From a virus (taxonomy: Duplodnaviria; Caudoviricetes), in the IMG/VR virus record IMGVR_UViG_3300029288_005816, positions 26,755 to 90,754 of that record: DNA of 64,000 bases. The stretch is one strand, 5' to 3'. Within the stretch, counting starts at the first letter, position 1. Each line of letters starts with the position of its first letter. Shown one piece after another: positions 26,169-41,692 of the stretch. The notes beneath the pieces were generated by a model that was not told the origin of the DNA, ran no database searches, and saw nothing but the letters and a program-made list of their open reading frames with translations. The translations under genes were made by a program, and so were the position numbers.

Positions 26169-27095
26169 TTAAACTTCTGCCTCTGGAGAGTTTTGGGTGG
26201 GTTGTTTAAAAACTCTAACTTCTTCAGACATGGATTTCATCCTTAAATAATTTGTAGCCAATGCAACAACATCCTTTTCACAATATATAGCAATTCTCGG
26301 TAAATCTTTTTCTTTCCAAAAAATATCTTTAACTTGACTACCGTCAATATCATCTTTTGATGAAGCCGTTCCAAAAATATCAGAAAGAGAATCAAGACTA
26401 ACTGATGCATCCCATATTCCAAATGACCACGTTTCTTTTGTATCAATAATATGCGTTTGTTCCCACGGTTTCATATGTGCATAATCAAGTGCATATGGTA
26501 ATTTAAATCCATTTATAATTAATCTCTTTGCTATAAAAGGAAAGTCAAATATCTTACCATTATGCGCACAGAATGCCCAAGATTCTTTAGCTTTTTTATC
26601 TAAAATTGCTCCTAATTTTTCATGATTAATGAAATCGCTTAAAAGAATTTTCTCATCTTCATTTGAAAAAGTTATAATTTTAATATTATAAAAATCTTCT
26701 GCTTCATTTTTCCAAATAACTCCTGCAGAAATACAAAGGATTCTACCAAATTCTGGGAATATTGGTGCTTTTATATTATATAACTCATTTCCAACTTCTA
26801 ATTTAATTCCTTTCATAATTTCTTCTGGAGTTAAATCTTGTATACTTACTTTTTTTGTGGATTTTTTCTTTTTACCTCCTTCTGTAACCTCTTCTGTAGC
26901 TAAAACTTCTTTCTTTAGAGATTTGTTGTTAAGAAATTCCAAATATTTTGTATTTATTCTAGGTTCAAAGTCTTTCTTAAATCTCTTAAAAAAAATTTCC
27001 TGTTGACGTTCTGTCAATTCAGAAAAATTTTCTTTTTGACTAGTTGTTTCTATATCTAGAAACAAAATTCTATTTAACGGTTTTTGGTCTAACAT
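26169..27095 (-). CDS. PolB-type 3'-5' exonuclease
   Basis: FLDIET, HNGKIFDFPFI, YCEKDV. Confidence 0.85.
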   Translation of the reverse strand: MLDQKPLNRILFLDIETTSQKENFSELTERQQEIFFKRFKKDFEPRINTKYLEFLNNKSLKKEVLATEEVTEGGKKKKSTKKVSIQDLTPEEIMKGIKLEVGNELYNIKAPIFPEFGRILCISAGVIWKNEAEDFYNIKIITFSNEDEKILLSDFINHEKLGAILDKKAKESWAFCAHNGKIFDFPFIAKRLIINGFKLPYALDYAHMKPWEQTHIIDTKETWSFGIWDASVSLDSLSDIFGTASSKDDIDGSQVKDIFWKEKDLPRIAIYCEKDVVALATNYLRMKSMSEEVRVFKQPTQNSPEAEV

Positions 27096-28985: not shown

Positions 28986-30137
28986 ATGGAAAAATTAACA
29001 ACAAAAGAGTTTATTGAAAAAGCTCAAAAAATTCATGGAGATAAATTTGATTACTCATTGGTTAAATATGTAAACAACAAAATAAAAGTAAAAATTATTT
29101 GCAAAGAGCACGGAGAGTTTGAACAACAACCGTCAACTCATTTACTGGGTCGTAGCGGATGTAAAAAATGCCATATAAATTCAATACGTAGCAATACGGA
29201 AGAATTTATACAAAAAGCGAAAGATATTCATGGAGATAAGTGTGATTATTCATTGGTCGAATATGTTGGTAGCAAAGTAAAAGTAAAAATAATTTGTAAA
29301 GAACACGGGATATTTGAGCAAACTCCAGTCATGCACATGGCAGGACAAAATTGCCCCAAATGTTCAATAGCTGCTAAATTTACTCAAAAGAAATTCGTAG
29401 AAAAAGCAAAAGCCATTCACGGAGATAAATATGATTATTCAGAAACTATATATAATGGAGCAGAACATAGTGTAAAAATATTTTGTAAAAAATGTAATAA
29501 TACTTTTGTACAGGTCGCATCTTCCCATATGAAAGGATGGGGATGTAATGAATGTTCAAAAAAAGCCCACACATTATCTGTAGAAGAATTTATTAACAGA
29601 GCCATTAAAAAACATGGTGATAAATATGATTATTCGAGTGTTAACTATAAAAGAATGGATGTTAAAGTTGATATTTTTTGTAAAAAATGCAAAAAATATT
29701 TTCAACAAACTCCGCACAATCATATGTTTTATGGATGTAAGAATTGCTCTTCTTCCGACGAGTCAAAAGGAGAAAAAGAAATAAAAAATTTTTTGGAAAA
29801 ATTAAACATTTCATTTATACAACAAAAAATGTTTGATGATTGTAAAAATATAAATAAATTGCCCTTTGATTTCTACTTACCACATTTTAACACGTGTATA
29901 GAATTTGATGGAAAGCAACACTTTAAACCCATTGGACATTGGGGCGGTGAAGATGGGTTAAAATCTATACAAAAAAGAGATAAAATAAAAACAGAATATT
30001 GTAAATTAAACAATATTCCACTTATTAGGATTTCTTATAAAGATAATATTGAATATATTTTAAATAAGACGCTTCAAAATTTCGGCTGTCATCCTGGCGT
30101 CATCGACTCCACGATGCATAACACCATCAAATTCTAA
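28986..30137 (+). CDS. Free-standing endonuclease: DUF723-type repeats + Vsr/DUF559-like nuclease
   Basis: Repeats HGDKYDYS...KVKIICKEHG; PFDFYL...IEFDGKQHF; paralog of 12091-13209. Confidence 0.82.
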   Translation: MEKLTTKEFIEKAQKIHGDKFDYSLVKYVNNKIKVKIICKEHGEFEQQPSTHLLGRSGCKKCHINSIRSNTEEFIQKAKDIHGDKCDYSLVEYVGSKVKVKIICKEHGIFEQTPVMHMAGQNCPKCSIAAKFTQKKFVEKAKAIHGDKYDYSETIYNGAEHSVKIFCKKCNNTFVQVASSHMKGWGCNECSKKAHTLSVEEFINRAIKKHGDKYDYSSVNYKRMDVKVDIFCKKCKKYFQQTPHNHMFYGCKNCSSSDESKGEKEIKNFLEKLNISFIQQKMFDDCKNINKLPFDFYLPHFNTCIEFDGKQHFKPIGHWGGEDGLKSIQKRDKIKTEYCKLNNIPLIRISYKDNIEYILNKTLQNFGCHPGVIDSTMHNTIKF

Positions 30138-30608
30138 ACCCAACTGCTTAAGTGCATTTGATACACTTGTAGATGTCTTTTCTCCTCTTTTAAAAGCATA
30201 CCATTCTTTAAGGTTAAAATGTGTTTTTCCAAAGGGATATTTTATTTTTTTTTCATAACATTCTGATTCTAAAATAATTCTATCATAGTCTCCCCAACTA
30301 AACCACATGCGTCGGTCACTTTGATACTCATCGACCAAAATTTTGCATGCCTTCTTAAAAGATATTCCTTCTTTATCTACTAATTCTTGGGTGATGGTAG
30401 TTAACTTTGTGCAAAACGGACTTATTTCGGAAAACTGCGGTTTAATAATTATGCTTCTTGACCCTATTGTTTCTTTTGAAAAATAGTCGACTTGTGCGAT
30501 ACCGATTTCAATTATTTCTTTTGACATTCCTACTGGAATTGGCGACATCCAACAGCAAGCCTCGACATCAATTACTAAAACGAAAGTGTTAATTTTTTCT
30601 TTTCTCAT
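30060..30608 (-). CDS. DEDDh 3'-5' exonuclease (KapD/ERI1-like)
   Basis: VIDVEA, EIIEIG, SWGDYD, HRGVDDA. Confidence 0.88.
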   Translation of the reverse strand: MRKEKINTFVLVIDVEACCWMSPIPVGMSKEIIEIGIAQVDYFSKETIGSRSIIIKPQFSEISPFCTKLTTITQELVDKEGISFKKACKILVDEYQSDRRMWFSWGDYDRIILESECYEKKIKYPFGKTHFNLKEWYAFKRGEKTSTSVSNALKQLGLEFDGVMHRGVDDARMTAEILKRLI

Positions 30609-31182
30609 AAACTTTTATATATTTTGGAGGTACTTCATCTGTAAGATAAACATTGTTATCTGTCTTATAAAATTTATATCCCTCATTGCACATTTGTTTT
30701 GCTTCTATCACCAATACTACTGATTCAACACCTTTTTGGTGTCTTGACCCTGTGTCTTTTGCTTTATTCATATTTTCTTCTGAATATAAATGAACATGAT
30801 GTCTATTCATTTTTTTAAGCCCTTCTTTCATAATAGAAGGCATAAATCTTGGAGCTGTGCCATGATATAATTTAAATGGAGGAATAATAGCTGATAATTG
30901 CAAATCCACTTCTATTGAGTGCCCCTGATTTGCTTTTATAAGCTTTTTATCATCACTAAATTTAAATCTTTGTTTATCAGAAGTTTTTACAACTTCTTCT
31001 AAATCTTCAAATGTGAATTCTATTTTGTTTTGAGATTTTTTTATAAGTAAATCTACATCTGCCCATCCATTTTTATCCAATATTATTCCAATAGAAGATG
31101 GATTGTGCCGCAACACATAAGATAAGTGTTTGCTAATTTTTGTTATTTTTTCTTTATAAATCATAATGGCAAAAATACACAA
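30589..31182 (-). CDS. kptA: RNA 2'-phosphotransferase (Tpt1/KptA)
   Basis: SKHLSYVLRH, DKQRF, ANQGHS, LYHGT, RHHVHL; likely start 31164. Confidence 0.93.
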   Translation of the reverse strand: MCIFAIMIYKEKITKISKHLSYVLRHNPSSIGIILDKNGWADVDLLIKKSQNKIEFTFEDLEEVVKTSDKQRFKFSDDKKLIKANQGHSIEVDLQLSAIIPPFKLYHGTAPRFMPSIMKEGLKKMNRHHVHLYSEENMNKAKDTGSRHQKGVESVVLVIEAKQMCNEGYKFYKTDNNVYLTDEVPPKYIKVYEKRKN

Positions 31183-31204
31183 AAATTATTAAATAAAAAA
31201 ATTT

Positions 31205-31432
31205 TTAAGATATAAAATGATTATATAAGCCAATCGGATTTTGATTTGGTGCCAAACCAGAAACTTGCCCAGTTGCATCTTTTTTAGTATTCTTAATAAT
31301 AGAACAGTCAATATTAATATCTTCAGAAATACTCTCTCCATTAATAGAAATTTGTTTATTCTTTAGTCTAGCTTTGATATCCTGGCTAAATAATCCTTGT
31401 TGTTTTAATATTTCTGATAATTTTATTAACAT
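31205..31432 (-). CDS. Small hypothetical protein, weak S4-like N-terminus
   Basis: 75 aa ORF. Confidence 0.45.
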   Translation of the reverse strand: MLIKLSEILKQQGLFSQDIKARLKNKQISINGESISEDINIDCSIIKNTKKDATGQVSGLAPNQNPIGLYNHFIS

Positions 31433-31447
31433 ATATCTTGGTTTAAT

Positions 31448-31633
31448 TTAAAATGGTAACATTTCTTTTTTATAAAAAGTCAATTGTTTCATTTTATTTA
31501 AAGTAATAAATTTTTTATTCATCCAATAACCTTTTGTGTAATTTAAAATAGTTAATTTAATTTGCCTACCAAATTTAGAATATAATTTTTTATTTTCGAA
31601 ATAATACCCTTGAAACTCTTTTATAAAAACCAT
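31448..31633 (-). CDS. Small hypothetical protein
   Basis: 61 aa ORF. Confidence 0.5.
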   Translation of the reverse strand: MVFIKEFQGYYFENKKLYSKFGRQIKLTILNYTKGYWMNKKFITLNKMKQLTFYKKEMLPF

Positions 31634-31710
31634 ATTCTATACTTTAAAATTATGATAATTAACACAATAAGATATAGACTAAAGTGCGATTATCCACGAG
31701 TTATGTGCCA

Positions 31711-31965
31711 TTAACCGATAACATCGTGAATTGACGGCACTCTTGGTAATAGCTTCCGCATCAATGAGAAAAAACTTCTGTATTCCTCAATCTGCTTTTC
31801 CTGTTGTTGAAGTTTGCTTTCCAAATCAACTATGTGTTTGTGTGCCAAAAACCATTCATTCAATTTACCACTTTCGTCTTTTGAAGTAATGTGTTTTTTT
31901 AATTCAGCATACTTGTCGGCACACTCTTTTTTCCCCATTGCTGCTCCGTGGTCATAATAAGCCAT
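31711..31965 (-). CDS. Cassette-borne hypothetical protein
   Basis: 84 aa; flanked by GTTATGTGCCGTTAA and TTAATGGCACATAAC. Confidence 0.65.
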   Translation of the reverse strand: MAYYDHGAAMGKKECADKYAELKKHITSKDESGKLNEWFLAHKHIVDLESKLQQQEKQIEEYRSFFSLMRKLLPRVPSIHDVIG

Positions 31966-31985
31966 ATCTTTCTAAGTTTAACGGC

Positions 31986-32082
31986 ACATAACAAGGTATA
32001 TATGTTATACGCCAATGAAGTGTCGTACTTAATTTTAAAACTTTATGGTCAGGCGTACAACACATATACCCAACCGTTATAG
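31986..32082 (-). repeat. attC-like site
   Basis: CTATAAC-GGTT-GGGTATATGTG...CATATATACC-TT-GTTATGT. Confidence 0.75.
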
Positions 32083-32099
32083 GTAATAAAATTTACTAC

Positions 32100-32324
32100 C
32101 TACATTCCAATACTTTCATCATATTTAAAGCTAATCAATATAATCGGTAAAAAAACAATTATTATTACCGTCCAAAAAATTAACAATATACCCATCATCC
32201 CACCAATGAAATATTTACCAAATAACGTAAATTCCATTTCATCAATGAACTCAAAAAACATACTTTTCCAATAATGTTTGATAATGTTCCAACTTCGTAA
32301 TAATTGTTTTTTTATAAATTTCAT
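32100..32324 (-). CDS. Cassette-borne small membrane protein
   Basis: 74 aa with one TM segment. Confidence 0.6.
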   Translation of the reverse strand: MKFIKKQLLRSWNIIKHYWKSMFFEFIDEMEFTLFGKYFIGGMMGILLIFWTVIIIVFLPIILISFKYDESIGM

Positions 32325-32344
32325 AACCCGTAAATTTTACATAC

Positions 32345-32440
32345 CTATAACAAAGTGTATAAGTAATGTGGCTAAATTAATTTATCTATAAGTTGAAAGT
32401 ATGTGCAAAGCCACACTACTCATACACTCAACCGTTAGTA
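32345..32440 (-). repeat. attC-like site
   Basis: TACTAAC-GGTT-GAGTGTATGAGTAGTGTGGCT...AGCCACATTACTTATACACTT-T-GTTATAG. Confidence 0.78.
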
Positions 32441-32446
32441 GTAATT

Positions 32447-32653
32447 TTATTTACAATCAAATTTACTATCAAACCACTTATTAAAGTCCTCATATACGCT
32501 ATTTTCGCCATCCTCACCATAATCAGCGCCTAATTGAACTCCTGCTGAAAATGCTCTTTGCAAATCATCCTTAGTAAAACTACTACTAACATCAGATATA
32601 TTCAATTTTTTATCTGAGTCATCAACTCCTATGTTTTTATTTACATCTTTCAT
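32447..32653 (-). CDS. Cassette-borne hypothetical protein, starts inside the upstream attC-like loop
   Basis: 68 aa; LNISDVSSS is encoded across the GTTAGTA box. Confidence 0.6.
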   Translation of the reverse strand: MKDVNKNIGVDDSDKKLNISDVSSSFTKDDLQRAFSAGVQLGADYGEDGENSVYEDFNKWFDSKFDCK

Positions 32654-32710
32654 TTTATTTAATTTTTGTGTTATTAATTAAGAAAACTGAATATATCTGT
32701 AACCGTTATA
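32584..32710 (-). repeat. attC-like site containing a gene start
   Basis: TATAAC-GGTTA-CAGATATATTCAGTTTT...AAAATTGAATATATCTG-AT-GTTAGTA (17-bp arm). Confidence 0.78.
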
Positions 32711-32726
32711 AAACATTAAAACGATT

Positions 32727-32860
32727 TTATAACAAAGTATATAAATAATGGTGATGTGGAGTCGAACCACCTACTCGAAGTCTCACCTGAAATTTAGGAC
32801 TCGAACCTACTACTCGAAGTCTCACCGAACCACCACTATTCATATACTCAACCGTTATAA
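32727..32860 (-). repeat. attC-like site with internal 26-bp direct repeats
   Basis: TATAAC-GGTT-GAGTATATGAATAGTGGTG...CACCATTATTTATATACTT-T-GTTATAA; repeats at 32762-32787 and 32801-32826. Confidence 0.78.
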
Positions 32861-33169
32861 TCAAAACTTCCTCCAGTCTAAATATTGTAGCTTTATCTCA
32901 TTTGAGAAAAATTTAATGTCATTATCATAATCTTTTCGATTTCTTGAATCCCAAATTAAAACACCACCAGTTATAATAATACCATTTACCATTAATCTAT
33001 CTCCCTTAACAATTTCAATCTGTAAGCCATTAAATTTTTCTCTTAAACGAGTTCGTATTTCCAATTGATATTCCGTCAATTTATCCGTACTGATTATAAC
33101 ATCAGATATAACCAATTTAGGTTTCTGTGATTTAATCAAGTTAAGTTTTTCTAATAATCTTTTTATCAT
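32861..33169 (-). CDS. Cassette-borne hypothetical protein, starts inside the attC-like loop
   Basis: 102 aa; LVISDVII crosses the GTTATAATCA box. Confidence 0.62.
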   Translation of the reverse strand: MIKRLLEKLNLIKSQKPKLVISDVIISTDKLTEYQLEIRTRLREKFNGLQIEIVKGDRLMVNGIIITGGVLIWDSRNRKDYDNDIKFFSNEIKLQYLDWRKF

Positions 33170-33225
33170 ATTTTAAGTTTTTGTATTTCAATTCCTAAAC
33201 TGGTTATATCTGAGAACCGTTAGCA
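33094..33225 (-). repeat. attC-like site containing a gene start
   Basis: GCTAAC-GGTTCT-CAGATATAACCAGTTTAGG...CCTAAATTGGTTATATCTG-AT-GTTATAA (19-bp arm). Confidence 0.78.
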
Positions 33226-33459
33226 ACAATGTTTTATGACCATAACACTTCCATATAAACCAACCGCCTCAGTAAGCATACTTTTAAAAAGCCTACATTC
33301 GTTGCTATTATAGCCTTTTTTTGCTACATAATTATCTAGTTTTTGTTGAAAGTCATCAGGCAATTGACTTTTTAAAAATTCCTGTGCATCTTTCCAAAAA
33401 TCAACACTGTTGCTAACATCACGTATAGCACATTGCTGTTTGTTCTTCGTATTTTTCAT
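33220..33459 (-). CDS. Cassette-borne hypothetical protein, starts inside the attC-like loop
   Basis: 79 aa; CAIRDVSNS crosses the GTTAGCA box. Confidence 0.6.
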   Translation of the reverse strand: MKNTKNKQQCAIRDVSNSVDFWKDAQEFLKSQLPDDFQQKLDNYVAKKGYNSNECRLFKSMLTEAVGLYGSVMVIKHCC

Positions 33460-33535
33460 CGTAAATAATTTTTAAGTTTGTAATTCTAATTAAGTTATAC
33501 ATAAACAACGTTCCATACACGCAGCCATTATAGGT
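33411..33535 (-). repeat. Degenerate attC-like site containing a gene start
   Basis: CTATAAT-GGCT-GCGTGTATGG...CTATACGTG-AT-GTTAGCA. Confidence 0.6.
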
Positions 33536-33543
33536 AATAAAAT

Positions 33544-33735
33544 TTACTTGCCATAAATCTTTGTTAAACCTTCTTGTTCTCTTTTAGATTTACATTTATC
33601 ACAATATTTCATCGTCCAAGCAGTTCCCTTGCTTTGAATAAGCCATTCACTTGTTGCTTTTTTTCCACAATTACATTTTCCGTGCATCATATCCGTAAAT
33701 TTTACATACCTATTACGACCAACCGTTATAAACAA
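33544..33735 (-). CDS. Cassette-borne small Cys-containing protein
   Basis: CNCG...YCDKC; true start probably the internal MMHGK. Confidence 0.55.
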   Translation of the reverse strand: MFITVGRNRYVKFTDMMHGKCNCGKKATSEWLIQSKGTAWTMKYCDKCKSKREQEGLTKIYGK

Positions 33736-33998
33736 GTTTGTTTAATTCTTTCAATTTCACTTTTCATCATTTGTTGTGGCGTATGATATTTTTCACAAAT
33801 TTCACATTGCCAAGTGCCAGACCCAACAAAAGCAACTGGAATACCACAGCAAATTCCAGCGAAAAAATCTAATTTATCATTCGTGTCACAAACCTGGTTT
33901 ATAATACCAAATAAACTCAATAAAAAGTTTTGTGCTTCTATTTCAGTTATACAACCTTGTTCAAGGTCTTTTGCTATTTTTAATATTTGTTCTTTCAT
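33726..33998 (-). CDS. Cassette-borne hypothetical protein, starts inside the attC-like loop
   Basis: 90 aa, CC...CEIC. Confidence 0.6.
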   Translation of the reverse strand: MKEQILKIAKDLEQGCITEIEAQNFLLSLFGIINQVCDTNDKLDFFAGICCGIPVAFVGSGTWQCEICEKYHTPQQMMKSEIERIKQTCL

Positions 33999-34031
33999 AT
34001 CTTTTACTGTGTTTATTTGTAACTATTAGAC
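33898..34031 (-). repeat. Degenerate attC-like site containing a gene start
   Basis: GTCTAAT-AGTT-ACAAATAAACACAGTAAAAG...CTTTTTATTGAGTTTATTTG-GT-ATTATAA. Confidence 0.6.
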
Positions 34032-34040
34032 ACAATACTA

Positions 34041-34223
34041 CTATACTTTTTTATAGATTGAGTTAAAATCCCTATCAGAAATGAATTGTCTTTTGCCTCT
34101 GTATAAGTAAAATATCAAATCAGTTCCTCTTTGTTTATTAGTTCCCTTTTTTATGTTATATTCATTTCCTGTTTGGATATTTTTATATCTTCCAAATTCT
34201 CTGATGTTACTAAGTTTTTCCAT
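34041..34223 (-). CDS. Small hypothetical protein
   Basis: 60 aa ORF. Confidence 0.55.
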   Translation of the reverse strand: MEKLSNIREFGRYKNIQTGNEYNIKKGTNKQRGTDLIFYLYRGKRQFISDRDFNSIYKKV

Positions 34224-34265
34224 AATTTACAGTATTGCGCCAATTAATATAAATATCAAAAATGC

Positions 34266-34442
34266 TTATAATACACTTTTTTTAAATTTATACATTTCAT
34301 GGTTATGAAATTCATATTCCATTCTTTTATAGTCTTTAAATAAACTTTTTACTTCTCTTACTTCTAAACACTTGAATTTCCTAATACAATTTCCATAATA
34401 GTAAAATTGCCCTATTTCTAAATCATTTATAGTTAAACCCAT
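34266..34442 (-). CDS. Small hypothetical protein
   Basis: Not in the ORF track; MGLTINDLEIGQFYYYG... 58 aa, fills the gap. Confidence 0.5.
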   Translation of the reverse strand: MGLTINDLEIGQFYYYGNCIRKFKCLEVREVKSLFKDYKRMEYEFHNHEMYKFKKSVL

Positions 34443-34474
34443 ATATTTAAGTATTTTAAAATTTTCTAGTATAA

Positions 34475-34756
34475 TTATAGCATTACTTTATATACCAACA
34501 TTGTGTCTGAAAAATGAGACCTGTTTCCATCTATTAGCCTGAAAGCATTTTCAAAGACGCCTTCCCACTCTGTTGGAATTGGTTCTGTCTTTTTAAAAAC
34601 ATAAGCTCCCTTACGAAATCCTCCATGTCCACTATCATCTCCATCTATTGGAAAATCTACAAAATGTTCGTATACTTTTAATTCTCCGAACGTTAATGGC
34701 TTCGACATTGTAGTTCTAGCCAGCACATTTTTATTGGACTCTTTATTTTTTTTCAT
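34475..34756 (-). CDS. Hypothetical protein
   Basis: 93 aa ORF. Confidence 0.6.
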   Translation of the reverse strand: MKKNKESNKNVLARTTMSKPLTFGELKVYEHFVDFPIDGDDSGHGGFRKGAYVFKKTEPIPTEWEGVFENAFRLIDGNRSHFSDTMLVYKVML

Positions 34757-34779
34757 TGTTATATTTTATAATAATTTTA

Positions 34780-34965
34780 TTAAATATATCGTACAATTTT
34801 ATCTTTTTCTCCATTAAGAGCATTTTTGGCATATTCTTCAGCTTGTACAACCATCCTGTCCATGCAAGTTTTTTTATCTTCGCATCCATATGTGTTTGAG
34901 ACCAGCCTTAATGCTTCTTTTATGGATTCAAGTTGAAATTTATAAATAGTTATTTTTTCCATCAT
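34780..34965 (-). CDS. Small hypothetical protein
   Basis: 61 aa ORF. Confidence 0.55.
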   Translation of the reverse strand: MMEKITIYKFQLESIKEALRLVSNTYGCEDKKTCMDRMVVQAEEYAKNALNGEKDKIVRYI

Positions 34966-34973
34966 TATTTATT

Positions 34974-35291
34974 TTATGCAAGCAATTCAAAATCGTACAT
35001 GACCCCATTTCCAACGTATGACAAACAAACATAATCATTATCATTCCAGATGTCAATTTCATATCTCAACTCTTCATCATTCCAATCAAATGACCCAATT
35101 AATTCTTTGTGTTCATGAAGTTCTCTCATAAATTTAAATTTGAAACGTTGCCCTTCCTTTATTGACTTTCCATTTTTGTCTTCCCTTACAATGGTAAGTT
35201 GTTCTATTTTTGTCTCTAAATCATTAATTGTTTCAGTGCATTCGATGTATTTTCCACCGATTTTTGCATATACTTTACCTTTGTATTCCAT
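34974..35291 (-). CDS. Hypothetical protein
   Basis: 105 aa ORF. Confidence 0.6.
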   Translation of the reverse strand: MEYKGKVYAKIGGKYIECTETINDLETKIEQLTIVREDKNGKSIKEGQRFKFKFMRELHEHKELIGSFDWNDEELRYEIDIWNDNDYVCLSYVGNGVMYDFELLA

Positions 35292-35316
35292 TTTATTGTG
35301 TAAATTTTTATTTAAT

Positions 35317-35344
35317 TATACGTATTTTTTGGCTATTTGTTACA
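35317..35344 (-). promoter_or_regulatory. WAAC-N16-CGTA promoter motif copy
   Basis: TGTAAC-16nt-CGTATA; heads the small-gene/cassette run. Confidence 0.7.
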
Positions 35345-35554
35345 AATTGCATATGTGTTTAAAAACCATTTTGGGTTATTTATTACTTCCTCTTTTGTAA
35401 AATTATACATTTTTAATTTACCTTCAATGACTTCTTCATCAGTCATTGAGTAATAAAAATTGCCATTAATATCTTCTTTAAATATTCTGCCTTTAGGACA
35501 ATTTGGTAACTTCTTTATTAATATTAATTTTCTTTGTTTTTCCATATATTTCAA
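35333..35554 (-). CDS. Small hypothetical protein
   Basis: 73 aa ORF. Confidence 0.55.
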   Translation of the reverse strand: MKYMEKQRKLILIKKLPNCPKGRIFKEDINGNFYYSMTDEEVIEGKLKMYNFTKEEVINNPKWFLNTYAICNK

Positions 35555-38780: not shown

Positions 38781-39140
38781 AAAAGATAAGGTGAGCGTAG
38801 CCAGAGTTCTGTTTTATTTTAGCATTTATCTGAAGTACTTGACACGTCAACACTCCGTTAGCCTCTACCCGATTATCATAGAATTGAAGGTTCCCATTCT
38901 AAATCCGTTTGAGTTATACGCCGCCCATTGGCTGCCTATTATTGATAGACGTTGCACCAGTAATAACGATTATAATTCGGGTCTTGCAAGGTTTCTGGTT
39001 TACTTAGCTTAGTACAAACCTTTTTTATCTTTTTGCCAAATCTAACAGCTTTAACATTTATAATCTCCTGATTCCTTCTTTATGACGTACTCTGAACTTC
39101 CTCACATTTTACTGTGCGCTAAATCCTCTTTCTTATCTTT
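38781..39140 (-). ncRNA. rnpB: RNase P RNA (bacterial type)
   Basis: GAGGAAGTTCAGAG (GAGGAAAGUCC-like) near the 5' end; AGATAAAT...ACAGAACTCTGGCTAC near the 3' end; P1 AAAGATAAG/CTTATCTTT, P2 TTTAGC/GCTAAA, P4 with bulged U; AGTAAACC...GCAAG core; about 360 nt. Confidence 0.82.
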
Positions 39141-40007
39141 AATAATTTTCCAATGTTTTTTTTGACAATTATCTGAACAATATTTTTTGTGATTATGTTT
39201 GGCATCAAACTTGATTTCGCAAAATTTACAAACTCTTCCATAATAACTTTCATGAACTTTTGAATCCCATTTATGATTGTAACAAACTACTGGACTTTCA
39301 CCTATAAAATTAAAAAATTCAAAAACACTCTTGTTTGGAATAACAATTCTATTTTTGTCTTTTTTTAAATATGCATCAAATCCCATTTTTTTTAATTTAT
39401 CAATTAAATACATATTATCTGTTTCAGTAAAAGAATCACTGCAAAATATCACTCCATCTTGATTATCTAGTGTTCCATCTCCTAAAAACCAATGCAAAAG
39501 CACTGTTCTATTTAATTCAACATCTTTTGGAACAATTTTTTTCCCATTTGGATACCATTTATTTCTTAATCCTGTAAATACGCTATTTGCTTGCGAATAT
39601 ATAGTAAAATACTCTTTTCCTTTATTGTATTTACCATAGCCAAACACTTTGTTTTTTTTAACTTTAAAATCTAACTCTGATATTAAAAAATCAATATATT
39701 CTTCAAATTTACAAAGATGTGTAAAAGAGGAGTTTTGGTTGTTTTTTGTTTTTCTATAACTACCATCAGAAAGTAGTGAACCAGTCAAAACATCAAGGGT
39801 ATTGCTTGAAAAAATTTCTACAATGTCGTTTTTCTTCCCTTCATCAGAGCACTTGTGAGAACAAAATTTGTTTGGCTTATGCTTTCTTTTAAAAAATTCT
39901 TGCCCACACGTCTCGCAAACTCCTTTAAGGAAATATTCATACCCATTCTTATTTTTTCTTAGTTTTTTGTATGAACCATCTTTTACTAATTCAAAATCTC
40001 CTGTCAT
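39102..40007 (-). CDS. LAGLIDADG-family homing endonuclease with Cys-rich ends
   Basis: LTGSLLSDGS and LHWFLGDG motifs; CxxC...FCS..C at both ends. Confidence 0.8.
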   Translation of the reverse strand: MTGDFELVKDGSYKKLRKNKNGYEYFLKGVCETCGQEFFKRKHKPNKFCSHKCSDEGKKNDIVEIFSSNTLDVLTGSLLSDGSYRKTKNNQNSSFTHLCKFEEYIDFLISELDFKVKKNKVFGYGKYNKGKEYFTIYSQANSVFTGLRNKWYPNGKKIVPKDVELNRTVLLHWFLGDGTLDNQDGVIFCSDSFTETDNMYLIDKLKKMGFDAYLKKDKNRIVIPNKSVFEFFNFIGESPVVCYNHKWDSKVHESYYGRVCKFCEIKFDAKHNHKKYCSDNCQKKHWKIIKDKKEDLAHSKM

Positions 40008-40687: not shown

Positions 40688-40760
40688 TGGAAGCACCAGG
40701 GGTTAAACACTGGAACACACGGGAATTCAATCCGCTGCTCTGTCGCTGAGCTATACTTCC
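40688..40760 (-). tRNA. Degenerate tRNA-Phe(GAA), possibly a pseudogene
   Basis: GGAAGTA/TGCTTCC, GCGGA-TTGAATT-CCCGT; aberrant T arm. Confidence 0.55.
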
Positions 40761-41692
40761 TTGCTGTATTTTACTTTTGTCCAATATCCTAATTTATTTT
40801 CAAGTTGTAGTCCATATTTTTTTGCTCTTTTTTTAATTGAGTTCCCGCTAACTCCAAACATTTCTCCTATTTTTGTATATGGATATTTCTGTATTAACTC
40901 TTCAAGTTCGTCTTTGGTTATTTTAAACCTTTCTATTTTTATACCACGTTCGATATTTGGATTAATTCCATTTAACTTATTTCGCTTGTCTCCTTTAAAT
41001 GTATTTTTTTTTCTTTCCATACATTCTGAATAATTATTTATAAGTTTTCTTTTGAAATCTGCCCCCAAATTTAAAACAAAAACTCTTTCCTTTTTTTTGA
41101 CATCAAACTCAATATTATATTTTATTTTTATCTGATTTAAAAATGATTCACACCCACAGTACAACTCACAAGAATTCGCATCCCCATCACCATCATAATA
41201 TCCAGACAAAAAGGATAAATTTAACAGTTCATCTTTGAATTCTGGTAAATTTATTATTTTACTTTTTGCATTTATACAACCTTTATCAACTATATGACGC
41301 ACAAATTCCTTATTAGTTATTCTTATAGATATTGATTTGCTTCCACAGGGGTGAGTTCTTTTCCTTATCTTATCTTTATTTGCACCAACAACTTCACAAA
41401 ATTTTTCAACTTGATTGTAGTCTTTTTCCGATAAATCTATAACTGCCCTACTATTAGTTGGAGAAATATATCCATCTGCATATAAAAACCCAAGCCAATA
41501 TGCTTTTTCTTTAGAATCTATACTCTTAAAAAAATTAACTTTTAAATTTGGATGTGCCTTTTTTGTTTCTCTACAAATATTGAATTTTTTTAATCTTCTA
41601 GCAATAGTGTTTCTATTAACATTATAGATTATTCCAATTTGTGTATTATTTAAACCACTAATAACAAATTTTTCCAATTCTTCTTTTTCCAT
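40751..41692 (-). CDS. LAGLIDADG-family homing endonuclease with terminal HTH segments
   Basis: AYWLGFLYADGYI and FLSGYYDGDG. Confidence 0.85.
   Translation of the reverse strand: MEKEELEKFVISGLNNTQIGIIYNVNRNTIARRLKKFNICRETKKAHPNLKVNFFKSIDSKEKAYWLGFLYADGYISPTNSRAVIDLSEKDYNQVEKFCEVVGANKDKIRKRTHPCGSKSISIRITNKEFVRHIVDKGCINAKSKIINLPEFKDELLNLSFLSGYYDGDGDANSCELYCGCESFLNQIKIKYNIEFDVKKKERVFVLNLGADFKRKLINNYSECMERKKNTFKGDKRNKLNGINPNIERGIKIERFKITKDELEELIQKYPYTKIGEMFGVSGNSIKKRAKKYGLQLENKLGYWTKVKYSKEV

Follow-up and report, generated by a model that had tools for sequence, protein, structure and literature searches.

Which gene does a start codon belong to when it lies inside the loop of a recombination-type hairpin, and on which side of that hairpin does the mobile unit begin? 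The question is raised by an array of small genes in a stretch of 64,000 nt (positions 26,755 to 90,754 of the IMG/VR virus record IMGVR_UViG_3300029288_005816), hereafter the window, that is, the whole stretch of DNA analyzed. On its minus strand, here the gene strand, eight hairpin sites (s1 to s8) of the form TAAC-bulge-stem-loop-stem-GTTA lie between small co-oriented open reading frames (ORFs) at 31989-34028; including a terminal box, the array spans 31700 to 34028. Five of the sites are intact and pair at all 14 stem positions; the other three (s6, s7, and s8) are decayed. In a preliminary description, the loops of four sites were said to hold the start codons and N-termini of the genes that follow, and a crossover at G/TT in the right-hand box was proposed to exchange them, so that the position in the array would decide whether and how a cassette is translated.

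Our analysis points to a decaying integron-like array as the probable explanation. Its units would consist of a hairpin and the gene downstream of it, the crossover would fall at TAA/C, the start in the loop would be a module of the cassette itself, and re-assortment of leaders (the part of a frame encoded within a site) and bodies (the part beyond the site) would be occasional.

Start Codons Inside the Hairpin Loops

The loops of the long sites s3 (122 nt, 32587-32708), s5 (126 nt, 33097-33222), s6 (33414-33530), and s8 (33902-34028) contain an A-rich stretch, an ATG, and 15-32 codons, and the frames cross the 3' arm and then the GTT box (ISDVSS, ISDVII, IRDVSN, and FGIIN, respectively) to enter the bodies of genes B, D, E, and G. 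Gene B (32447-32653, 68 aa) starts with the ATG at 32653; s3 carries its 5' untranslated region (UTR), the ATG, and the leader MKDVNKNIGVDDSDKKLNISDV, which runs for 22 codons to GTT and is followed by V-S-S-S from the R'' box. Gene D (32861-33169, 102 aa) has its ATG at 33169 in the s5 loop, and s5 carries this start and the 24-codon leader MIKRLLEKLNLIKSQKPKLVISDV, called leader A below. The start of gene E (33220-33459, 79 aa) is in the s6 loop and its leader, MKNTKNKQQCAIRDV, has 15 codons. Gene G (33726-33998, 90 aa) starts in the loop of s8, a site of the leader-G type; its leader of 32 codons belongs to a very widespread family and ends in LLSLFGI, GTT being mutated to ATT. In the bodies of all four genes, the next 36-45 or more codons are free of in-frame ATG; the first one occurs at residue 60 in D, 62 in E, and 77 in G, and there is none in B. 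At the level of sequence this confirms what the preliminary description had read from the four sites: a recombination-type hairpin contains the start codon and encodes the N-terminus, and the frame stays open across the right arm and the GTT box.

The arrangement was then considered across the family, in 18 records (the window, 16 IMG/VR contigs, and LR756500.1) that together hold 19 array loci. Relatives were gathered by one arm motif, which led to LR756500.1, a 462-kb uncultured huge phage, and then by two motif scans of viral contigs that returned mostly chance matches; array counts from these scans are lower bounds (at least 18 records). Comparison of the array with 50,697 phage records by blastn gave a single match of 89 nt, again in LR756500.1. 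The hairpin site finder was applied to the contig and its relatives, with at least 13 of 14 stem pairs accepted as evidence. At this threshold, ten shuffles of the contig (90.7 kb each) contained 0-3 sites; a cut-off of 12 of 14 pairs was rejected, as it gave 8 sites against 9-16 in shuffles. The sites fall into short (48 nt, with the conserved loop ATCGTTTTAATG), medium (about 74-102 nt), and long (about 105-188 nt) classes, and an array holds up to 18 of them.

Of the 64 long sites (at least 105 nt), 37 contain an ORF of at least 40 aa that starts at an ATG within the site and crosses the GTTA box; among 53 medium and 28 short sites, 4 and 3 do so, respectively. GTT is read as a codon in 31 of the 37 spanning ORFs (binomial P = 3.6e-10 against 1/3), and the frame through the right arm and box is thus a family-wide feature. 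In predicted folds, the unpaired probability from -15 to +9 of the ATG was 0.70, compared with 0.57 in loop-shuffled controls, and it was higher than in the controls in 29 of 31 leader-bearing sites. The stretch from -15 to -1 before loop ATGs is 60% A. In leader-G sites the 5' arm is separated from the ATG by only 13 nearly invariant A-rich nucleotides; therefore, no space for a promoter exists upstream of the start within the cassette.

At the other end of the frame, the stop codon of gene E is the TAA of the s5 TAAC box (33220-33222), and that of gene G is the TAA of the s7 box (33726-33728). The same overlap of the upstream gene's stop with the TAAC box was observed in many cassettes of L125, L126, L127, L129, L137, L157, L186, L203, L209, and L230; some genes therefore span from the loop start to the following box. 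Leader-only short ORFs were also observed: in some long sites the in-phase leader stops 2-12 codons past GTTA and the body has its own start (gene-strand positions 9162-9233 in L125, 12158-12208 and 13085-13159 in L126, 4928-5011 in L208, and 3694-3798 in L198).

Boundaries of the Mobile Unit

Cassette D, composed of leader A and body D, was found in seven DNA contexts. Mean pairwise identity among them is 0.92 for the hairpin and 0.87 for the body, 0.59 for the 60 nt before TAAC, and 0.65 for the 80 nt after the TAAC of the body; both flanks are thus at background, which is 0.69 for unrelated sites. The block common to L125 and L129 (480 bp, 94% identical) is an exact TAAC-to-TAAC span. Bodies L136_0 and L203_0, 97.8% identical, have upstream sites with 98% identity and downstream sites with 64% identity. 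The window array likewise ends with a body followed by TAAC.

As the boundaries lie at TAA/C, the mobile unit is made up of a hairpin and the downstream gene (32435-32705 for unit B, 32855-33219 for unit D), and the start in the loop belongs to its own cassette. Two parts of the preliminary description are thereby revised: the frame does not run from one cassette into the next, the boundary being upstream of the start codon, and the place in the array does not decide the N-terminus, since cassette D keeps its hairpin together with its gene from context to context.

Recombinase and Array Ends

In relatives, the array end reads on the gene strand as the last body, ATTR-NNNN-TAAC, and a conserved TA(T/G)ATTATATAT(G)TAA stretch without a hairpin. 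Directly after this junction, a co-oriented gene for a tyrosine recombinase of 266-273 aa was found in L198, L127, L137, L142, and L178; in L125 the recombinase gene follows a 188-nt hairpin. In G001, G002, and G003 a tyrosine recombinase directly adjoins the array. The last of these, a 246-kb relative, has a second tyrosine recombinase far from the array (G003:C1:233753-234181).

The array-adjacent recombinase carries the domains PF00589 and PF13495. The recombinases scored 151-170 bits against the integron integrase model TIGR02249 (cut-off 265) and 176-194 bits against the XerA model (cut-off 220), and their best solved relative is the XerA-like structure 4a8e. Alignment with VchIntIA (2a3v) gave two stretches, between which about 48 residues corresponding to the integron-specific segment are absent. 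Such an Xer-like recombinase would make the crossovers, with the gene strand as the strand folded in recombination. Two other enzymes were tried as candidates and rejected: a Y1 HUH transposase (PF01797) was matched in none of five records, and for a serine recombinase (PF00239) there was one sub-threshold match in five records.

In classical integrons, the bottom strand read 5' to 3' has the cassettes, then AA/C of attI, then intI. The phage arrays would share this geometry if their gene strand corresponded to the bottom strand. The AAC geometry of classical attC sites is taken from Nivina et al. (2016; PMC5027507). The array ends, the position and orientation of the recombinase, and the seven contexts of cassette D are the reasons for placing the main crossover at TAA/C and not regularly at G/TT, where the preliminary description had put it.

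Structure of the Hairpin Sites

The 136 sites compared have 104 distinct 14-nt arms. Each of stem positions 1-13 is paired in 93-100% of them, and all four types of Watson-Crick pair occur at each position; these values apply to sites that had been selected for pairing. The boxes, ATTR-NNNN-TAAC and GTTA-NNNN-YAGT, measure 12 nt each, and fused proteins therefore show V-x-x-S after the arm. Across arrays, the four variable box bases are body-specific, the start of each body being complementary to its own end (GTTA-NNNN and NNNN-TAAC); in the window these body-specific inverted repeats have 9-20 bp. The last cassette (31711-31965) has the body start GTTATGTGCC and the body end GGCACATAAC.

When sites were detected without credit for G-T pairs and with symmetric spacers allowed, the non-Watson-Crick stem positions comprised 193 G-T or T-G pairs and 14 A-C or C-A pairs. 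Spacers (5' side, 3' side; n = 142) were most often (5,2), in 52 sites, followed by (4,0) in 28, (3,0) in 24, and (6,3) in 8; most sites thus have a 5' surplus of 3-4 nt beside TAAC, and stems without bulges. All window sites fold better on the gene strand. Owing to the G-T excess, the 5' spacer surplus, and the better folding, we conclude that the hairpin structure is selected on the gene strand, as single-stranded DNA, RNA, or both.

The resulting organization can be described as follows. The array would consist of integron-like cassettes of huge phages, each with one imperfect hairpin site and then one small gene on the same strand: C, a bulge of 3-4 nt (GGT and variants), the 5' arm, the loop, the 3' arm, GTTA-NNNN-YAGT, the gene body, and ATTR-NNNN-TAA. 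With the crossover at TAA/C, upstream of the gene start, a gene would have its own recombination hairpin at its 5' end. In long sites the loop would have come to serve as 5' UTR and to provide the start codon and the first 15-32 codons; the phase in which the frame crosses the 3' arm and 12-nt box (V-x-x-S) is fixed, and in many cassettes the frame ends in the TAA of the next box. The start in the loop would be the portable start module of that cassette, unpaired in the folded transcript, and over evolution hairpin-plus-leader modules would have been re-paired with bodies, with junctions at or just after the GTT box.

Re-assortment of Leaders and Bodies

Leaders and bodies do not always occur together. 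The body of ORF B, with 75-78% overall identity, was found behind three different leaders. For the body of ORF D, 19 of 32 protein matches were retrieved; the body is 75-90% identical and stands behind leader A, behind an ORF-B-type leader (P0012, P0014, and P0020; DNA in L267/L268), behind other short leaders (P0018 and P0025), and behind longer N-terminal parts (P0016, P0023, P0024, P0027, and P0028). Leader A also heads three unrelated bodies (P0029, P0031, and P0034). The 32-residue leader of ORF G is common to 35 of 39 matches that are otherwise different proteins; the body is covered in only one of them, and 15 of 16 retrieved proteins diverge right after LFGV. The leader of ORF E co-diverges with its body in 10 of 14 retrieved homologs. 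The junctions of re-assortment lie at the GTT codon or just past the 12-nt box, with some breakpoints elsewhere, and the homology shared at a junction can amount to no more than about 7 nt.

The check proposed in the preliminary description is thus positive, the same body being found behind different leaders in other genomes. Its idea of N-terminus swapping holds in part: leaders have been exchanged at GTT in the course of evolution, and the exchange is not regular, leader and body normally travelling together. Re-assortment would thus be a series of repeated, rarer events in units that usually keep both.

What is exchanged appears to matter mainly as nucleic acid. For body D, the ratio of nonsynonymous to synonymous substitution rates (dN/dS) is 0.12 (dS 0.552), and on this ground the bodies are real proteins. 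The loop codons of leader A have a dN/dS of 0.58 (dS 0.137), its arm and box are nearly frozen (dS 0.036), and leader G has a dN/dS of 0.74. The leaders are weakly constrained as peptides and conserved mainly as nucleic acid. They may serve as portable translation-start modules, displayed open in the loop of a folded polycistronic transcript; the arrangement of the loop would then serve translation. A capsid-targeting role for the leaders was considered and set aside in view of the weak peptide constraint.

The phase of the fusions suggests a further step. As the leader ends with the G of a codon and the fused body begins with TT-A in the same phase, a G/TT joint would connect any start and leader to any body in frame. 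The in-frame GTT could be a second, less frequent crossover point of the Xer-like recombinase, acting on a weaker antisense hairpin in the manner of occasional top-strand recombination in classical integrons; we put this forward tentatively and regard it as possible, with the odds somewhat against it. If true, the G/TT crossover would be a natural, site-specific swapping of N-terminal modules in small phage proteins, similar to the shuffling of exons of the same phase, and recombination at the in-frame box would constitute a new route to protein diversity.

Weighing of the Explanations

Several observations weigh against an integron-like array with its crossover at TAA/C. No tyrosine recombinase was found in the 90.7-kb contig (no PF00589 match), in LR756500.1 (462 kb), or in G004 (266 kb, 100% complete), and three of the eight window sites are decayed. 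In an all-versus-all comparison of 123 bodies, 44 pairs were homologous, and the identity of sites reached at least 0.8 in 9 of these pairs upstream and in a single pair downstream; the 90th percentile of the background being 0.83, the upstream co-conservation is modest, and the comparison is only suggestive of the upstream site travelling with the body. The excess of G-T pairs fits folding of RNA as well as that of single-stranded DNA. L142_2 and L230_0 have a common 5' UTR and 3' tail around different ORFs, with breakpoints off the boxes, and the breakpoints of L260 and L258 fall within the loop or leader. When contigs from four metagenome runs were compared with window positions 30500-35500, they broke at the hairpins and mixed arms, loops, and bodies in many combinations; they show re-use of modules by other phages and do not place the crossover. 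Finally, leader swaps at the GTT box are common enough for a second crossover there to be conceivable.

Some of these loci deserve a closer description. L142 (4963-5460) and L230 (263-750, both gene-strand) are identical in their 48-nt site, in the 47 nt of 5' UTR that precede the ATG, and in the 3' tail, which encodes SKQIND-stop; the interiors of the ORFs are unrelated, and the cargo was therefore replaced within a conserved frame. In L260 (1380-1460), leader A and its 3' arm stand behind a non-pairing 5' arm of another site type, and in L258 (640-720) a leader-A arm lies inside an ORF whose start follows a medium site. In the metagenomes, two contigs, X2 record 7 (32712-34010) and X3 record 15 (32822-35373), match the window without differences; the array has kept its order in two further metagenomes, and no rearrangement of this phage's own array was seen in contigs of the four runs. 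In runs X2-X6 (landfill and groundwater), contig depth over 30500-35500 is several-fold higher at hairpins, as in the X2 bin 32337-32503 with a depth of 248 compared with about 30 in adjacent bins; many other genomes in the samples therefore carry the same types of site.

Could the hairpins be purely regulatory? As terminators, processing sites, or insulators of start regions, similar to the PeSL elements of T4-type phages, they would be shuffled by general phage recombination, and the recombinase would be unrelated to them. This explanation accounts for G-U-type wobble on the transcribed strand only, for start regions kept open in loops, for breakpoints that also fall in loops, past the 12-nt box, and at ORF edges, and for the three array-bearing records without a recombinase; PeSL elements (PMC2839356 and PMC4122927) are a precedent of modular shuffling without a dedicated recombinase. 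It does not account for the body-specific complementarity of cassette ends, which fits a circularizing site-specific system and is unexplained by general recombination, nor for a tyrosine recombinase behind a conserved junction at the end of six arrays, nor for junctions with as little as about 7 nt of homology. Moreover, 9 sigma-70-type promoters were found against 15.5 expected, in a scan that did not extend to Bacteroidota-type promoters, and no intrinsic terminators were found. We consider a purely regulatory role unlikely.

Slightly less likely still is the mechanism of the preliminary description, with a regular crossover at G/TT in the valine codon, the leader provided by the hairpin of the preceding cassette, and translation set by position. 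The phase-0 GTT in 31 of 37 spanning ORFs agrees with it, as do the occurrence of one body with several leaders and one leader with many bodies, and the junctions at the V codon despite differing arms (ISDV, ILDV, and LFGV). Leader-only short ORFs that stop past the box would be expected where leaders meet non-matching bodies, and the position of the surplus bases, on the gene strand's 5' arm, is similar to that in the top strand of classical attC. Against it, cassette D retains its upstream hairpin with its body, the downstream flank being at background; the arrays end with a body and TAAC beside the recombinase instead of a hairpin and G/TT; for the recombinase to have its classical position, the gene strand must be the bottom strand; divergence of the ORF E leader mostly goes along with that of its body; and it is the gene strand that folds better. 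That the ATGs in the loops are unused, with the true starts downstream of the GTT boxes and the leaders open by chance, is very improbable: the weak peptide constraint of the leaders agrees with it, and it is contradicted by the late in-frame ATGs of bodies D, E, and G and their absence from B, by phase 0 in 31 of 37 ORFs, by frames of homologs that stay open through different leaders, by the nearly invariant 13 nt before the leader-G ATG, and by the start regions of 29 of 31 sites, which are less paired than those of shuffled loops.

The Window Array and Its Genomic Context

The window array is a decaying, recombinase-less relic. Its terminal TAAC box (GTTA on the plus strand, 31700-31703) marks the end where relatives have the attI-like junction and the recombinase, and the DNA beyond it is unrelated. 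Next to it is the last cassette gene (31711-31965, 84 aa), with its own start downstream of the s1 GTTA box. The medium site s1 (91 nt, 31989-32079) has 14 of 14 stem pairs and a non-coding loop. Gene A (32100-32324), which encodes a hydrophobic protein of 74 aa, lies entirely between sites and has 20-bp inverted repeats on both sides. It is followed by another medium site, s2 (90 nt, 32348-32437), also with 14 of 14 pairs; this site coincides with a peak of metagenome depth and is of a widely reused type. All these features, and those below, are on the minus strand.

Between s3 and s4 there is a 29-bp body without an ORF (32705-32733), composed of GTTATAAAA-TCGTTTTAATG-TTTTATAAC. Its center, TCGTTTTAATG, also forms the conserved loop in short sites (48 nt) of many related phages; a small hairpin therefore occupies both site and body positions. 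The long site s4 (128 nt, 32730-32857) has no spanning ORF. Its 77-nt loop contains two copies of a motif similar to the T-arm of transfer RNA (tRNA), GGTTCGAGTCC and GGTTCGACTCC, inside a direct repeat; ARAGORN called no tRNA in 31000-35000, these repeats notwithstanding.

In s6 the stem is weak and the 5' box has decayed to TAAT as read on the gene strand (ATTA). Gene F (33544-33690) encodes a Cys-rich protein of 48 aa and has its own start. Cassettes A and F have unrelated ORFs and common terminal inverted repeats of about 20 bp (32079-32099/32328-32347 and 33530-33550/33694-33715), and metagenome contigs join ends of the A/F type around other contents (joints 32095>32331, 32097>33688, and similar). 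Site s7 (33713-33728) is almost deleted, two boxes and 8 nt remaining, and both boxes of s8 are decayed (TAAT/ATTA). Search of the seven window cassette proteins against Pfam and PHROGs gave only two weak PHROG matches, of unknown function, and eight leader-sharing proteins had no match in Pfam.

The window is part of a 90.7-kb contig with a G+C content of about 28%, estimated by CheckV as 57% complete. The gene content is like that of very large phages and includes a sigma factor, ClpP, DnaJ, RtcB, Tpt1, LAGLIDADG endonucleases, and a terminase-like ORF. Most genes of the window, including every array gene discussed, are on the minus strand. Plus-strand ORFs with repeated treble-clef zinc-finger/DUF723-like modules interrupt this order at 12091-13209 and 28986-30137, and LAGLIDADG genes are located at 39102-40007 and 40751-41692. 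The two zinc-finger ORFs and two LAGLIDADG genes suggest several homing-type insertions.

Comparison With Known Systems

Integron cassettes carry promoterless genes on the top strand, with the site at the 3' end of the gene, and are read from the promoter Pc beside attI. Like integrons and clusters of attC sites lacking an integrase (CALINs), the phage arrays consist of small co-oriented cassettes with imperfect AAC...GTT hairpins (here 48-188 nt), a variable loop, and complementary cassette ends; in relatives, they also have a tyrosine recombinase and a conserved junction at one end, in the intI-attI geometry relative to the folded strand. Hairpins with AAC and GTT boxes (five intact sites in the window, about 140 in relatives) and complementarity of cassette start and end are thus shared with integrons. 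An IntI-type integrase, extrahelical bases with 5-6 nt spacers, and top-strand genes with a 3' site are not: the recombinase is Xer-like, with about 48 residues of the IntI-specific segment missing and with scores under the cut-offs for integron integrases; the R boxes have 12 nt, four of them cassette-specific; and the genes are on the folded strand, reading toward the recombinase, with the site at the 5' end of the gene. In the description of attC given in PMC5027507, extrahelical bases lie near L'' and the unpaired central spacer has 5-6 nt per arm, whereas here a bulge of 3-4 nt lies beside the 5' box and spacers have 5 nt against 2 nt. The sites, called attC-like in the preliminary description, are therefore not classical attC sites, the anatomy being different and no integron integrase being present. 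By anatomy, the window array, with eight sites and no recombinase in 90.7 kb, would be an analog of a CALIN. CALINs have been reported in phages (Qi et al., 2023; PMC9892861); the portion of that article on these elements does not describe Xer-like recombinases or starts inside sites.

If correct, these results fix the orientation and expression logic of an integron-like system of phages, in which the recombination hairpin stands in front of the gene, and explain how cassettes that read away from any platform promoter have working starts. Dozens of unrelated small phage proteins have common starts, with the consequence that gene callers and family databases will cluster them wrongly by leader or truncate them, and the leaders may be of use as portable expression modules for AT-rich hosts without Shine-Dalgarno sites. 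In the literature on attC sites and integrons of jumbo or huge phages and on integron-like tyrosine-recombinase cassettes, no description of loop-borne starts or of this system was found.

The site of Xer recombinases, dif, is a double-stranded 28-bp sequence with two inverted 11-bp arms around a center of 6-8 bp; no dif-like double-stranded core was seen in the hairpin sites on inspection by eye. Unrelated small proteins with a common short leader also recall the internal proteins of phage T4, variable genes with a common short N-terminal capsid-targeting leader; given the weak peptide constraint here (dN/dS 0.58-0.74), the resemblance is only a lead.

The nearest phage analog is the PeSL of T4-type phages (Arbiol et al., 2010, PMC2839356; Comeau et al., 2014, PMC4122927). 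PeSLs are likewise G-T-paired stem-loops between small orphan genes of a plastic region, provide expression signals for the gene downstream, and mark points of shuffling. A PeSL, however, has its start codon at the 3' edge, contains a sigma-70 promoter, a Shine-Dalgarno site, and a terminator hairpin as well, and is recombined by homology, whereas in the phage arrays the start and 15-32 codons are inside the loop, AAC and GTT boxes and cassette-specific complementarity are present, and relatives have a tyrosine recombinase.

Fused cassettes and ORF-11 of attI1 in class 1 integrons (PMC4670013) are similar in that translation can rely on start signals in a recombination site or a neighboring cassette. 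Those cases are rare accidents or a single short ORF borne by attI, whereas here the start is in the cassette's own site and systematic. Finally, synthetic attC sites in coding sequences (Nivina et al., 2020; PMC7439510) are similar in that a folded site and a reading frame share the same DNA, with the arm and box read as a peptide linker. They are engineered, with IntI1 and classical attC; in the phage arrays the overlap is natural, family-wide, and would include the translation start, so that a folded recombination site, a translation start, and a coding sequence, previously combined only by engineering, would occupy the same 120 nt.

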